Assembly: GCA_965218795.1 (NCBI GenBank)
Contig: OZ244653.1
Location: forward strand, 2,624,001 to 2,688,000
Direction: 5' to 3'
Length of the DNA stretch: 64,000 nt
Origin: a bacterium
Lineage (GTDB): Bacteria; UBA8248; JACPRG01; G963555815
Part shown: in pieces, positions 18,875 to 33,590 of the stretch
Numbering within the stretch: the first letter of the stretch is position 1
Layout: the number at the start of each line of letters is the position of its first letter
Notes under the pieces: model-generated
Told to the model about the DNA's origin: nothing
The model's input: only the letters and a program-made list of their open reading frames with translations
Databases searched by the model: none
Program-made: the position numbers and the translations under genes

Positions 18875-19185
18875 GGAGATACCAAAGTCTTCTCCCTATG
18901 CGGTAGATGGGGTCCCCCGGAGGGTATGTCTTTTCCTCCGGCTCGCCGCTCCGGGAAGCACCGGGGACGGCTCAAGCCGGCCGATGAGCGTTGCGCGCCG
19001 CACGCGGCGTTGCCTTCGGGGCGGACCGCTCGAACTCGCGGGCCAGTTCCGCGGGCGTGCGGCCCGAGCGGACCAGCTCGACTATCTGACGCCGCTACTC
19101 CGGCGCGTAAGGGGAATGAGTTTTCGACATCGGAACACCTCCTGCCCACAGTCTGAAAGTGTCCACCATATCGGGGCCAAATCCA
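18875..19185 (-). mobile_element. IS3 internal-deletion derivative
   Basis: Left IR and orfA start are joined at TTCGA to the 3' subterminal region of the intact IS (about 32770-32920). Confidence 0.8.
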
Positions 19186-19917: not shown

Positions 19918-20846
19918 TGGACTTGACCCGTTTTTGTGGACACCTTCAGACTGTGCGCAGGAGGTGTTCAGATGGCAAAGACTCATCCGCCTTACGCGCT
20001 GGCGTACCGGCGCCAGATGGTCGAACTGGTTCGCTCGGGCCGCACGCCCGGGGAGCTGGCTCGCGAGTTCGAGTGTTCCGCTTCGGCGATTCGCAACTGG
20101 GTACGCCAGGCCGATCGGGACGAAGGCCGTCGTGAGGACGGTCTGAGGAGCACGGAGCTCGAGGAACTGCGACGGCTTCGTCGGGAGAATCGCCAGCTTC
20201 GCGAGGAACGGGAGAGCCTACAAAAAAGCTACGGCTTGGTTCGCACGGGAGACCGGCTCGGTACGGGCAAAGTGTTCGAGCTCGTGAGGGCGAATCAGGC
20301 CCATCATCGGGTAGCCACGATGTGCCGGGTGCTGGGTGTCTCTCCCAGCGGGTACTACGCGTGGCGAAGCCGTGGGCGTTCGAATCGTGCGAAGCGCGAC
20401 GAGGAGTTGCGGGGCACGATACGGACCATCCACGATGCCTCTGGAGGCGCCTACGGGGCGCCTCGGGTGCATGCCGAGCTGGTGGCCCAGGGATGCCAAG
20501 TGAGTCGCAAACGGGTAGCTCGCCTGATGCGCGAGGCGGGATTGGCCGGGGTGAGCTGACGCCGAGGCACGGGCACCACGCGCGTGGACCCGAGCCATCG
20601 TGCGATCCCGGACCGGGTCGAACGCCAGTTCCAGGCCGATGGGCCGGACCGGCTTTGGGTGGCCGACATCACCTACGTGTCGACCTGGACGGAGTTCGTG
20701 TAGCTGGCGGTCGTGCTCGACGTGTTCAGCCGCCGGGTGGTGGGATGGTCGATGGCCTCCCATCTTCGTACCGAACTGGTGCTCGGGGCGCTGAACATGG
20801 CGTTGGGACAGCGCCGCCCCCAAGGGGTCGTGCATCATTCCGACAG
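19918..20846 (+). mobile_element. IS3-family copy, degenerate and truncated at the HSD codons
   Basis: Left IR TGGACTTGACCCG; colinear with 31587-32513; stops at 20557 and 20701; homology ends after CATTCCGACAG. Confidence 0.9.
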
Positions 20847-20914
20847 TGAGTATGTGAGGGCCGGTTACCTGAGGTGGTCTGACCCGTACCGCGAGTAACG
20901 CATTTAGGCTTGTA

Positions 20915-21100
20915 GGGCCGGCCGCCCCTGGGTGGCTTGACCCACACTCTGATTGACCGTGGTGTCGTTCCCTGGACTTGTCGGCCACCCAGGGGCAACC
21001 GGTTGAGGTTCCGACCTCGACCGACATCGTGACCTGATGAGAGCCTGGCCCAAGGCGTCCCTTCCCTGTCGTGTCCAAGATCGGCTGAGTTCGGTTCCAT
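20915..21100 (+). ncRNA. Putative IS110 bridge RNA
   Basis: Two consecutive stem-loops with internal loops upstream of the IS110 ORF: GCCCCTGGGTGGC/GCCACCCAGGGGC, and a CCGA..GAC/GTC..TCGG stem with an apical GCCT/AGGC hairpin. Confidence 0.7.
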
Positions 21101-21132
21101 CCCCTTCACTCACCATAGACGAGGAGGCGGAG

Positions 21133-21522
21133 ATGGCGAACGCGATCGCTGAGGGCACCCAGATCATCGGGGGCGTCGATACCCACCAGGACCTGCACAC
21201 CGCTGCCGTCGTGGACCTCGATGGAGCGGTACTCGGCACCGAATCGTTCTCCACCACCCGGGCCGGCTACCGGGCGATGCTTCGCTGGTTCCGGTCTCAC
21301 GGGGAGTTGCTTCGCGTAGGGGTCGAATCCACGGGGACTTACGGGGCTGGCATTACCCGGCATTTGGCCTTGTCCGGCGTGCCCGTGCTCGAGGTGACCG
21401 GTCCGGACCGGGCCGGGCGAAGAGCCAAGGGCAAGAGCGATGCCCTGGACTCGATCGCGGCGGCTGAGGCGGCTCGAACGAAAATCCGGGTCCAGGTGGC
21501 CAAAGACCGTTCCGGTGCCGTG
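21133..21522 (+). pseudogene. IS110 recombinase N-terminal domain, truncated
   Basis: GGVDTHQD.H, GVESTGTYG and GKSD.LD motifs; GAGGAGG RBS; cut by a mini-IS3. Confidence 0.88.
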
Positions 21523-21594
21523 TGGATTTGACCCGCTTCGGTGGACACTTTCAGACTTTTATCAGGAGGTGTTCACCAGAACGGGGCAACTCCA
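21523..21594. mobile_element. 72-bp IS3-derived miniature element
   Basis: TGGATTTGACCCG..GTGGACAC left IR and GTGTTCACCAGAACGGGGCAACTCCA right IR with only about 20 bp between. Confidence 0.8.
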
Positions 21595-21771
21595 TGCACC
21601 GGGGATTTCCCGGCCGCAACGACGATGCGCCTCAAATGAATTCCGATCGCGCCGGAAGCCTCCGACGGAGCGGAGGAATGTAAGGCAATGATTGACAGCC
21701 CCGCCTTCTCCCGCTACCTTTGGACCGGGCGGTGATGACGCGCTCGATTCCGATCTGGAGGACCGTGACCG

Positions 21772-30284: not shown

Positions 30285-30780
30285 CCCTCCTGCCCACAGT
30301 CTGAAAGTGTTCAGTTGTCGAAGACTCATTCCCCTTGCGTGTCGGAGTACCGGCGCCAGATGGTCGAACGGGTCCGCTCGAACCGTCCCCGGTCCTTCCC
30401 GGATCGGCGAGCCGAAGGTCCAGAAATACCCTCACTCAGACGTGGGGGCAGGTCCACCGCGCGTTCCATCCCGCATCGCCGTCGAGAGCCCCCGCAACGA
30501 CCTCAGCACGGGCTGCCCATTGGCCCAAATTGAATTGTCCCATGGCCCAAAATCTTTCCATTTCACAACCCGTGTGAGACACGCTTACCCTACCAAGGTG
30601 CTCAAACTCTGGTTGGACACGCTTGAAGCTCCGGTGCTTGCCGGAGCGGCGAGCCGGAGGGAAAGACACCTGACCCTATGGACCGGTCTTGGGGAAGGCT
30701 TTACGTCCACCGGCTATCGTCGACCTCCGGGGCGGGGGACGACAGCCATCTACTGTCTACTGATTCTCTAAGTAACTCCA
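30285..30780 (+). mobile_element. Mosaic of IS3 end remnants
   Basis: Pieces matching the orfA start and, twice, the 3' subterminal region of IS 31587-32997; ends ..AACTCCA at 30780. Confidence 0.7.
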
Positions 30781-31640
30781 GGAGAATAGCGATGCTGCTT
30801 GTTGCAAGAGCAGTGGGGCGCGTTTCATATGTTACGGCACTTACAATGCTTCTCGCGTTCGGAGTCCTGCCTGCTGAAGCCGACGAATCGAGACTCTGGC
30901 CCGCCTTTGATCGCCCCGGTGTTTCGCTGCTGTCCGGAGTGCAGAGGTGTGGACCTGCCCTCAACGACGGCTTGTCGGAGGGCTCGCAATGCCTGACCGG
31001 CTGGGCGGTGAATCAGCTCCTGCTCGATGCAGCGGTCCGTTTTGCGACCGAGCAGGGCCGAGCAATGTTCGGCGAGCATTTCCGTATCGTCAATAGCCTG
31101 AGCTACTCGCCGGACGGGAGCGGGCTGGGCGGAGGGCTTGACGTCGTCTTTCCATTTGCGTCGTCGACATTTCTCGGCGCCGCGCCGTCTGAGTTTAGCG
31201 CCTTCTTCCTGCAACAGGGTATGACGCGCTGGGTCGACGACCGCGGGACCGACCGAAACGACCTTCGCTTCGGCGCTGTTCGCCGTTTCGGCCTGTCCGA
31301 AGAAGGCGCGGCGCCCGGCATTCTTGGCTTATCCACCTTCGTCCAGCAGAGCCTTGAGTTCGAACACACGCGACTCGTAGCCGGCGCCGACTATGCCGGC
31401 AAGTGGGGACGGGGGTCGCTCAACCTGCTTTGTCCCCACGACGGGCTGGCGACCTGATCATATCGGGTACGAAGAGCGCGCACTTGCCGGAATCGAGCTT
31501 GGTTTAAAGCTGAACCTCACCACCACCTTGTCCATGAGCACGGCGATCGGCCAATGGGAAGACGATGACGGTCTCGGCGGCTGGTCTGGAGTTGACCTGT
31601 TTCAGTGGACACCTTCAGACTGTGCGGAGGAGGTGTTCCG

Positions 31641-31955
31641 ATGGCGAAAACTCATTCACCCTACGCGCCGGAGTACCGGCGCCAGATGGTCGAGCTGGTT
31701 CGCTCGGGCCGTACGCCCGGGGAGCTGGCCCGGGAGTTCGAGTGTTCCGCTTCGGCGATTCGCAACTGGGTGCGTCAGGCCGACCGGGACGAAGGCCGTC
31801 GTGAGGATGGTCTGACAAGCGCCGAGCTTGAGGAGCTGCGACGGCTTCGTCGAGAGGTTCGTCAGCTTCGCGAAGAACGCGAGATACTGGCAAAAGCTAC
31901 GGCTTGGTTCGCTCGGGAGACCGGCTCGGTCCGGGCGAAGTCCTCGAGCTCGTGA
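31641..31955 (+). CDS. IS3 transposase OrfA
   Basis: HTH plus leucine zipper; AAAAG slippery motif near 31891. Confidence 0.9.
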   Translation: MAKTHSPYAPEYRRQMVELVRSGRTPGELAREFECSASAIRNWVRQADRDEGRREDGLTSAELEELRRLRREVRQLREEREILAKATAWFARETGSVRAKSSSS

Positions 31956-32992
31956 AGGCGAATCAGGCCCATCATCGGGTGGCCACGATGTGCCGGGTGC
32001 TGGGCGTCTCCCCCAGCGGGTACTACGCGTGGCGAGGCCGTGGGCGTTCTCCTCGTGCGAAGCGCGACGAGGTGTTGGGGGGCACGATACGGGCCATCCA
32101 CGAGGCATCTGGTGGCACCTACGGGGCGCCTCGGGTCCATGCCGAGCTGATGGCCGGCGGCTGCCGGGTGAGCCGCAAACGGGTGGCTCGTCTGATGCGC
32201 GAGGCAGGGTTGGCCGGGGTGAGCCGACGCCGAGGTATGCGCACTACGCGCGTGGACCAGAGCCATTGTGTGGTCCCGGACCGGGTCGAACGCCAGTTCC
32301 AGGCCGATGGGCCGGATCGGCTTTGGGTGGCCGACGTGACCTACGTGCCGACCTGGACGGGGTTCGTGTACCTGGCCATCGTGCTCGACGTGTTCAGCCG
32401 CCGGGCGGTGGGCTGGTCCATGACCCACCATCTTCGCACCGAACTGGTGCTCGGGGCGCTGAACATGGCGTTGGGACAGCGCCGCCCCGACGGGGTCGTG
32501 CATCACTCCGACAGGGGATCGCAGTACACTTCGCTCGCCTTCGGCAAGCGGTGCCGCCAGATGGGGGTGGTTCCCTCGACCGGGTCGGCCGGGGATTGCT
32601 TCGACAACGCCATGGCCGAGAGCTTCTTTGCCACGCTGGAGTGCGAGCTCATCGACCGGCGCTCGTTCCGTACCCAGGCCGAAGCGCGCATGGCGATCTT
32701 CCAATTCATCGAAGGCTGGTACAACCCACGCCGTCGTCATTCGGCCCTGGGTTACCTCAGCCCCAACGACTTCGAACGCGCCGCGGCGAAGGAAACGCCA
32801 CGTGCAGTGCGCAACGCTCATCGTCCGGCTCGAGCCGTCCCCGGCGCTTCCCAGAGCGGCGAGCCAAAGGTCAAGACATACCCCCCGGGGGCACCCTATC
32901 TATCGGATAGGGAGAAGACTTTACGTCCACCGGCTGTCGCCCACCTCAGGGCTGGGGACGACAGCCATAAACTGTCCACTGAAACGGGGTAA
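31904..32992 (+). CDS. IS3 transposase OrfB (-1 frameshift fusion)
   Basis: WVADVTY, HSDRGSQY and DNAMAESFF DDE triad. Confidence 0.92.
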   Translation: MVRSGDRLGPGEVLELVKANQAHHRVATMCRVLGVSPSGYYAWRGRGRSPRAKRDEVLGGTIRAIHEASGGTYGAPRVHAELMAGGCRVSRKRVARLMREAGLAGVSRRRGMRTTRVDQSHCVVPDRVERQFQADGPDRLWVADVTYVPTWTGFVYLAIVLDVFSRRAVGWSMTHHLRTELVLGALNMALGQRRPDGVVHHSDRGSQYTSLAFGKRCRQMGVVPSTGSAGDCFDNAMAESFFATLECELIDRRSFRTQAEARMAIFQFIEGWYNPRRRHSALGYLSPNDFERAAAKETPRAVRNAHRPARAVPGASQSGEPKVKTYPPGAPYLSDREKTLRPPAVAHLRAGDDSHKLSTETG

Positions 32993-33590
32993 ATCCAGGT
33001 CGACGAACGGTCGAGTGGCTGTGGGTTGGCGTCCGCATCCCTGGTTCAACATCAACGTTGCGTGGAACGGGCTCGGCACACACAGCAATACAGAGCAGTT
33101 TCGTCTGGCATTCTCACTGCCCTTGAGGAAACGCGCAAAACGGCCGCGGTGGGCGGGCCTGGGCCTTGTGGGCGGCGGTTCGAAGCCGTCCGCCGTCGAC
33201 TCCTGGAGTCCGGTCGAGAATATCGACGTCATCCATGTGGCGCGACGTGAGATCGCGAGCGATCCTCTCGTCTCCTCGGCGACGGTCCGTTTTCTTCAGG
33301 AAAGCGCGAGCAGTGGTGACGAAATCGGCATCGAAGTCAGCCTCACTGCCGTAACATCCCGCGATCTGGATCTGGTTTTGACGCTCGCGCCCGGCACGGG
33401 CGACAACCCTGCCGTGCCGGGAGTGGACTTTGTGGACGAACCCGTCTCGGTCACGATTCGCGCGGGAACGTCCAGCGCCGTTGTCACCATTCAACTCCCG
33501 CTGAATTCCGAACTGAACGAATCCCGGTCTCTGAGTGTCACAGTAAGATCGGCGTCCTGACCAAATGGCGCCCTCTGACATCGCGAGGCG

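Follow-up and report, generated by a model that had tools for sequence, protein, structure and literature searches.

A dead IS110 fragment of the ISEc21 clade, probably guided by RNA into the second catalytic Asp codon of an IS3-family transposase gene

The window analysed here, a 64,000-nucleotide (nt) stretch of a bacterial contig (OZ244653.1, positions 2,624,001 to 2,688,000), contains a decayed IS3-family insertion sequence (IS) that is interrupted by part of an IS110-family element. We put at roughly 90% the probability that this part, at 20845-21522, is a dead 5′ fragment of an ISEc21-clade IS110 that is guided by RNA into the second-Asp codon of rve (DDE) transposases. The insertion site, the structure of the leader, its covariation, and the homology with ISEc21 were all established in this analysis. 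A preliminary description of this DNA had already proposed that the leader RNA guides the IS110 to codons for the second catalytic Asp, and the proposal has held up: three of three mappable copies here and 36 of 48 elsewhere lie there, covariation is found, and the guides sit in an internal loop. The element is a member of the ISEc21 clade, and the targeting habit itself has already been published for ISEc21; what is added here is a clade-wide census, a mapped donor loop, and a candidate second guide.

Insertion behind the Asp codon in this genome and in others

The elements concerned are the following (a slash between positions or bases marks a junction).
19918..20844, + strand: left part of a decayed IS3-family element (left inverted repeat, orfA, and orfB up to the HHSD Asp codon), with in-frame stops
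20842..20844, + strand: GAC, the Asp codon of HSD(R/Q)G; insertion point 20844/20845
20845..21522, + strand: 5′ fragment of an ISEc21-clade IS110 element (288-nt leader and the first 130 transposase codons), right end absent
20845..20854, + strand: IS110 left terminus AGTGAGTATG, the right-donor half-site
21133..21522, + strand: truncated transposase gene, N-terminal DEDD domain only (PF01548, E 7.7e-17)
21523..21594, + strand: mini-IS3 of 72 nt, consisting of 52 nt of left end and ~20 nt of right end
31587..32998, + strand: intact IS3, one of seven copies 99.8-100% identical over their full length, with a common empty site
G000:C1:2704317-2705678: full-length IS110 copy with a 351-residue transposase (P0001; PF01548, E 2.7e-22, and PF02371, E 1.5e-15)
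G000:C1:3132445: internally deleted IS110 copy
~G000:C1:1864275: fourth IS110 remnant, also broken

The window's IS3 remnant is 89.3% identical to the intact IS3 (31587-32998) over IS3 positions 1-928 and terminates in CAT-CAT-TCC-GAC, the H-H-S-D of the rve catalytic core. The AG that follows at 20845-46 consists of IS110 bases that coincidentally equal the first two bases of the intact IS3's AGG codon; because all homologues open with AGTGAG, AGGGAG, AGTAAG, or AGTCAG, the junction is placed at 20844/20845. The switch from IS3 to IS110 noticed in the preliminary description is present, with its position corrected from 20846/20847, and the left end does not lie well downstream of 20847, an arrangement that had been named there as speaking against guiding. 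A ribosome-binding site lies between the leader and the open reading frame (ORF) start at 21133. The mini-IS3, whose right-end likeness was judged by eye against 32975-32998, cuts this ORF at 21522, with unrelated DNA beyond it; it is the mark of the break that removed the IS110 3′ part. The IS110 copy in the window is dead. Other pieces of IS3, some of them inverted or partial left ends, lie in the window at 19021-19175 and 30286-30771, and the region is littered with the remains of insertion sequences nested in one another.

Four IS110 copies of this lineage are present in the genome, of which one is full length, and the window fragment is 90.6% identical to it. The full-length copy has the layout of the IS110 group (a leader of 288 nt and a right end ~20 nt past the stop codon), has neither terminal inverted repeats nor a target duplication, as is the rule in that group, and contains the PF02371 (Transposase_20) domain that is missing from the window copy, truncated at 21522. 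All three copies in the genome with a mappable left junction sit after the GAC of HHSD, in three IS3 subtypes whose uninterrupted members read GAC/CAGGGC (the window's subtype), GAC/CGGGGA, or GAC/AAGGGC; the empty site of the intact IS3 is CACTCCGAC/AGGGGATCG at 32504-32521. Since the full-length copy is flanked by GAC on the left and CAGGGCTCGCAG on the right, comparison with the empty sites shows that insertion was exact, with zero bases duplicated or lost. The IS3 carrying the full-length copy is 96% identical to uninterrupted copies and 87-88% identical to the other two carriers (the window and 3132445), which are 96% identical to each other, and these values therefore require at least two independent insertion events.

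An IS3 deletion derivative is found twice in this genome (G000:C1:224474-225489 and 2857450-2858464), with position ~930 joined to 1317. Its junction, TCGGAC/AGGGAGAAGAC, places the break at the IS110's own site, and the joined sequence opens like the IS110 left end (AGGGAG); the corresponding sequence of the intact IS3 is CGGAT/AGGGAGAAGAC, at ~32908-32924 of the window. The derivative could be a recombinase-mediated or a microhomology deletion.

A homologue scan that took one genome per species (the window's own class being represented by only 51 species genomes) found 59 loci elsewhere, with transposases 44-89% identical. Their sources are a few isolates and metagenome-assembled genomes (MAGs) labelled Alphaproteobacteria, Gammaproteobacteria, Palauibacter, Longimicrobiales, Thermoleophilia, Coriobacteriaceae, Acidimicrobiia, and Dehalococcoidia. 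The left junction was mappable in 48 of these loci, the others being truncated or at contig ends, and an rve-type transposase, called by phmmer against IS3 OrfB at E < 1e-3, forms the left flank in 36 of the 48. All 36 flanks end at the same codon (H-S-D in 28, N-T-D in 7, and H-G-D in 1), and they span 23 distinct 15-residue contexts. Four of four tested flanks, from different families, stop at position 73 of an rve profile that is 102 positions long, and at 19 loci both flanks are transposase-like, the right one being R/Q-G-S-Q-Y/F.

Some flanks in the census resemble the ends of the element itself. At L006 and L007 the left flank, TTCATGAGAGCGAAT/AGTGAG, is similar to the element's own right end (ACATGAGAGCGTC), suggesting the remains of a tandem or circle junction. 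Right flanks starting AGT or AGC (L004, L008, L009, L024, L025, L026, L032, and the remnant at 1864275) do not continue the left-side transposase and open as the element itself does on its left; one-ended rearrangements or joined-end relics may account for them. At L032 the IS3 does continue on the right, with one extra base (AGTGGGATCG). The elements are 80-91% identical in DNA (most 82-85%) across MAGs labelled as Alpha- and Gammaproteobacteria, Longimicrobiales/Palauibacter, and Dehalococcoidia, and such identity across phyla implies either recent inter-phylum transfer or mis-binned mobile DNA; the copies in Actinomycetota MAGs are more distant.

The leader RNA and its guides

The leader is a predicted RNA of the bridge/seek type: it has one loop for the target and one for the donor, and the unpaired strands of these loops match, and co-vary with, the target and the element's ends. 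Its predicted parts in the window are as follows.
20873..20899, + strand: module A (GGUGGUCUGACCC + G + UACCGCGAG + UAAC), paralogous to the target loop's 5′ half
20919..21002, + strand: target-binding loop, outer stem 20919-20942 with 20980-21002; the internal loop holds the guides
20945..20953, + strand: left target guide CACUCUGAU, same sense as CAY-TCN-GAY, pairing with the bottom strand
20955-20966, + strand: inner hairpin of the target loop, GAC..GUC
20968..20975, + strand: right target guide UUCCCUGG, complementary to top strand -1 to +6 (Y/CAGGGA), the R/Q-G codons
21003..21020, + strand: linker hairpin, UUGAGG with CCUCGA
21021..21084, + strand: donor-binding loop, inner hairpin 21047-21059; outer stem decayed in the window copy
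21037-21044, + strand: left donor guide AUGAGAGC, repeating right-end bases -11..-4 of the full-length copy (ATGAGAGC/GTC)
21062-21068, + strand: right donor guide UUCCCUG, complementary to C/AGGGA of the element junction

An alignment (A1) of 28 non-redundant leaders, in which the window row begins two bases late, gave an RNAalifold consensus with a long outer stem, an invariant GAC..GUC inner hairpin, the linker hairpin, and a second two-stem unit. Both target-guide strands are unpaired in this consensus structure, so the pairing of these two segments that the preliminary description had named as possible counterevidence is not seen. The covariation test set consisted of 24 homologues, with the window lineage, L052, and ISEc21 left out and the guide strands kept unpaired. 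In the resulting structure 95.7% of cells are paired and 18 of 42 pairs are changed on both sides; none of 500 shuffles reaches the observed pairing, and slid controls pair at 26-46%. Covariance model R1, made from those 24 sequences, matches the window at 20918-21084 with 184 bits (E 1.6e-40). The single-sequence fold z-score of -1.47 is uninformative, and an Rfam scan of 20700-21700 met no family at the gathering threshold, giving sub-threshold microRNA-type chance matches that fall mostly on the mini-IS3 hairpin. With single-sequence match and fold z-score both weak, the case rests on comparative evidence.

Across the family, the target loop has as its 5′ strand the 9-mer that follows UGACCC(N) and as its 3′ strand the (U)UCCCYG preceding GAC. 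The strings on which the preliminary description was built are present in the DNA (CACTCTGA at 20945-20952, TTCCCTG at 20968-20974, and the intact IS3 site CACTCCGACAGGGGA at 32504-32518), and several details of its reading had to be amended. The left strand matches the left half of the site as described and had been drawn one base short, the full strand CACUCUGAU corresponding to the His-Ser-Asp codons. The right strand is complementary to the right half, in a pairing register one base off the family-wide register seen in L012 and L042. The loop had been taken for the first stem-loop of the leader and is preceded by an earlier module at 20873-20899.

Against the intact paralogue CACTCCGAC, the window's left guide is paired at 9/9 positions, two of them G-U. 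Agreement between left guides and left flanks was scored with G-U allowed, and under these wobble rules four 9-mers in the window leader reach 8/9. As 8/9 matches are too common, only 9/9 matches and covariation were used as evidence. The 40 non-redundant insertions yield 17 windows with a perfect 9/9 match, and 16 of these lie at two fixed leader positions. Guides that fit their flanks at 9/9 include CACUCAGAU with CACTCAGAT (L015), AAUACUGAC with AATACCGAC (L028), CACUCUGAU with CACTCCGAC (L029, L032, and L043), AACACCGAU with AACACCGAT (L033), and CAUUCUGAC with CATTCCGAC (L048). Judged from the sequences, guides and targets co-vary across lineages, H-S-D versus N-T-D. The right guide fits +1 to +7 at 7/7 in L012 and, with one G-U, in L042. 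The G before GAC in the right strand pairs with C at +1, and the window's G fits the GAC/CAGGGC of its IS3 subtype; in L002 and L032, where +1 of the IS3 type is an A (AGG), U takes the place of this base.

The donor loop, which the preliminary description had left unmapped, was mapped through the full-length copy elsewhere in the genome. Its 3′ strand, UUCNCUG, is complementary to the last right-end base plus the first five left-end bases, and donor guide and left end co-vary in four states (UCACUG with AGTGAG, UUACUG with AGTAAG, UGACUG with AGTCAG, and UCCCUG with AGGGAG). In the donor loop, AUGAGAG and CUGUCGU are paired by RNAalifold and were kept unpaired here by choice, by analogy with the target loop. 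GGCGUC (21054-21059) was rejected as the left donor guide, being the 3′ strand of the inner hairpin, with covariation, and not tracking the right end in L004 or L033. The donor's AG is always present at left junctions, right junctions mostly have the target's bases, and L022 has AG at its right junction where sister loci have CG. A core at +1/+2 that is free to differ between the partners and is mostly fixed from one strand would fit. A model with a shared TC or GG core was rejected, since the junctions that it predicts are one base off from those observed. The joined ends, read by eye, would give TTGACA (from the right end), 17 nt, and GAGTAT, which would be a candidate circle-junction promoter with GAGTAT as its -10.

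By homology with ISEc21 and IS621, the active element would excise as a circle, and the joined ends would create a promoter from which the long leader is transcribed. The leader would act as a bridge/seek RNA with two internal loops, AUGAGAGC and UUCNCUG of the donor loop holding the element's own right and left ends. In an RNA-protein complex, the DEDD/Ser recombinase would then insert the circle by strand exchange precisely behind the Asp codon of an rve (DDE) transposase gene, ahead of the codon that follows, with no duplication. The window copy entered an IS3 that is now decayed and later lost its 3′ part at the mini-IS3. As a landing place for a homing element such a site has three advantages: it occurs in many copies, it moves itself, and catalysis keeps it constrained.

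Module A as a candidate second left-target guide

Most clade members have module A upstream of the target loop, with the consensus GGUGGYCUGACYC, one base, a 9-mer, and then RGAC; it is missing from ISEc21, L052, L037, and L040, and in L053 it is a plain tandem duplicate. We lean slightly towards the view that the leader has two alternative left-target guides and one common right guide, and that the RNA may switch target specificities. The alphaproteobacterial element has CACAGCGAU (Ser AGC) in module A versus CACUCAGAU (Ser UCA) as the normal guide B, and the Longimicrobiales/Palauibacter element has AACACUGAU or AAUACUGAC (N-T-D) in module A and CAUUCUGAC (H-S-D) or CACUCCGAC in B. The observed insertion sites fall into exactly two classes, Ser AGC versus UCN and N-T-D versus H-S-D. 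At a set of these sites the normal guide fits only 5-6/9 and module A 8-9/9, namely CATAGCGAT (L004 type), CACAGCGAT (L010 and L018, both non-IS and exact for module A), CACAGTGAT (L013), AACACCGAT (L026), and AATACCGAC (L025, L035, and L042, the module A of the last two being AAUACUGAC). For L030 (CACAGCGAC) the fit is 9/9 with module A versus 7/9 with the normal guide. The unique module-A variant of L059, AUCACGGAU, fits its own flank ATCACGGAC at 9/9, the module A of L053 matches its own flank exactly, and seven of the 17 perfect windows are located at module A.

The stem strand of module A can replace the 5′ strand of the target loop, with 87.3% of cells paired with the 3′ strand. Five pairs of this alternative are changed on both sides, a number reached by 10 of 500 shuffles, and part of the pairing is inherited because module A is paralogous to the 5′ half of the target loop. 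In several lineages the constrained module-A folds have an energy similar to or lower than the canonical one (-79.9 vs -68.6 kcal/mol in L042). The module-A 9-mer of the window lineage (UACCGCGAG) has no match among the known sites. ISEc21 (L063:331-339, bases 31-39) and L052, its Xenorhabdus relative (~50-58 nt in), have upstream 9-mers, CACUCUGUU and UCUUCUGAU, that resemble the other serine-codon version, at a level where chance matches are common. No published account of two target guides was found in the literature searched, and a 2026 preprint, in the portion available, speaks of multiple donor-binding loops only.

Relatives, rival explanations, and the choice of landing site

The closest known system is ISEc21, which in E. 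coli, according to its report (Siddiquee et al. 2024, Nat Commun, PMC11187229), inserts after the second-D codon of IS3 transposases with no duplication, forms a circle with a junction promoter, and has an essential upstream non-coding region. The same report describes a 74-nt transposase-bound RNA with the bottom-strand match on the 5′ side of the top-strand one, the reprogramming of ISEc21 through its RNA, and ISMch6 as a naturally redirected relative. The ISEc21 sequence was taken from the coordinates given in PMC11187229, and its junctions were read in this analysis. Its transposase is 55% identical to that of the full-length copy (E 2e-143), and model R1 matches its non-coding region (L063:375-541) with 73 bits (E 3e-15). 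Also alike are the upstream non-coding region, the short right end ..GCGTC, the left end AGTNAN.AT, insertion directly after the second-D codon with no duplication, and the bottom-strand match 5′ of the top-strand match within one loop. In ISEc21, too, the left donor guide (AGAAGGGC) repeats bases -11..-4 of its own right end, and the donor GUUACUG pairs with its own C/AGTAA. The two differ by ~45% protein divergence and in their hosts, Enterobacteria versus environmental MAGs of several phyla. For Ser, the single left guide of ISEc21 has AGC and the window's has UCU, and ISEc21, like L052, is without the module A that the leader here has.

IS621, as reported in PMC11208160 and also the subject of Hiraizumi et al. 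2024, is similar in its two internal loops, target loop before donor loop, and long left end; it differs in targeting repetitive extragenic palindromic (REP) elements and in having an identical CT core in donor and target, which is not found here. The main text of PMC11208160 (Durrant et al. 2024) makes no mention of IS3. Rfam has no family that covers the IS621 bridge RNA or the leader here. IS4321 and IS5075 of the IS1111 group, attributed to Partridge and Hall in 2003, are reportedly DEDD elements that home into another transposon, and are said to differ in having the guide RNA downstream of the transposase gene.

The genome has a second IS110-family element, unrelated to the first, with a 454-residue transposase (PF01548 and PF02371) and copies at L064:436-2046 (G000:C1:1740135-1741745) and near 2706301-2707914, 4907805-4909418, and 5050717-5052329. 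Four IS3 copies are interrupted by it at their A-AAA-AAG programmed-frameshift site (..ATCCTAAAAAA/CGGGAC ... TTAGGAAA/GCCGCGG). As the four have identical flanks, they give no evidence of independent insertion and may be one duplicated composite. Relatives with transposases 65-71% identical were found at 80 metagenome loci, 70 of them with the right-end motif and enough flank; the right continuation is IS3-type (K)AAAYFAKE in 42, of the NFxxL class in 10, of the VAELLG class in 7, and other in 11. Left junctions ending YTRAAAAA(A) number 54, a motif-defined count, and 32 loci have an IS3 OrfB-like frame just downstream. Two strings in the leader of this second lineage correspond to the element's ends: UUAGGAAA is identical to the right end, and GUCCCG is complementary to the left one. 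Among seven genomes of the order and 51 of the class, this lineage is present only in this genome, and the literature search found no paper on IS110 targeting of the IS3 frameshift site.

Several observations weigh against guidance of the ISEc21-clade element to the Asp codon. The window's left guide fits its own flank, CATTCCGAC, at 8/9, with one mismatch, and the right flank is lost; L027 and L034 fit their own guides poorly (5-6/9); the window copy is truncated, with the outer stem of its donor loop decayed; and the seven intact IS3 copies with a perfect site are all unoccupied in this genome. The donor (GTC/AG) and the targets (GAY followed by CG, CA, AG, or AA) share no identical in-register dinucleotide. 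The left donor guide fits right-end bases -11..-4, not the last nine, and with that register the geometry of strand exchange is not fully explained. Finally, 12 of the 48 homologous insertions lie outside recognisable transposase genes. CAY-WSN-GAY is still at the junction in seven of the 12 (L010, L011, L013, L015, L018, L021, and L043), the non-transposase loci L053 (CACACGGAT) and L059 (ATCACGGAC) match their own guides exactly, and L054 is retargeted to TATCCGTAT. Insertion of the same loop sequences at unrelated sites, which the preliminary description would have counted against itself, is thus not what the census gives, the non-IS sites still carrying the 9-nt motif.

The most direct rival is that the transposase protein reads the site DNA itself, the leader matches being leftover similarity or chance. 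The four 8/9 wobble matches within the window leader alone and the fold z-score of only -1.47 would suit it, but guide 9-mers and flanks differ together between lineages (H-S-D, N-T-D, ATCACGGAC in L059, and TATCCGTAT in L054) while the transposases stay 64-89% identical, the perfect matches are concentrated (16/17) at two leader positions, and ISEc21 was reprogrammed via its RNA, as PMC11187229 reports; we regard direct reading by the protein as very unlikely. Still less probable is a history without homing, in which a single old IS3::IS110 composite was copied around and the common site was one accident. The window and 3132445 carriers are alike enough (96%) to be one event, but the IS3 of the full-length copy is 87-88% identical to those two and 96% identical to uninterrupted copies, and other genomes supply 23 distinct transposase contexts, N-T-D families included; such a history is already contradicted by these carrier identities and contexts. 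A further rival grants the site a function beyond a safe landing pad, with the element as an IS3 silencer (an anti-transposon function) that serves the host or itself. Every insertion does split the catalytic domain at the second D, and the genome's other IS110 lineage breaks IS3 at its frameshift site, but there is no sign of selection for silencing, the youngest IS3 family, seven copies with an identical perfect site, is untouched, and only one of the four IS110 copies is full length, so we consider a silencing function highly improbable. The preliminary description had the element homing into and inactivating IS3: the homing stands, and inactivation as a function is improbable, with seven perfect sites unoccupied and the window copy dead.

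For the clade as a whole, the analysis suggests that homing to the second D is the ancestral habit of a group spread across phyla, and that its members retune their guides to different transposase families. If the leader does have two guides, the element could follow synonymous as well as family-level variation of a coding target, and the second guide module would make this a natural bridge RNA with two target specificities, relevant to the engineering of bridge recombinases. Taken with the second IS110 lineage, the findings suggest that RNA-guided IS110s repeatedly pick functionally frozen sequences of other transposons as landing pads.

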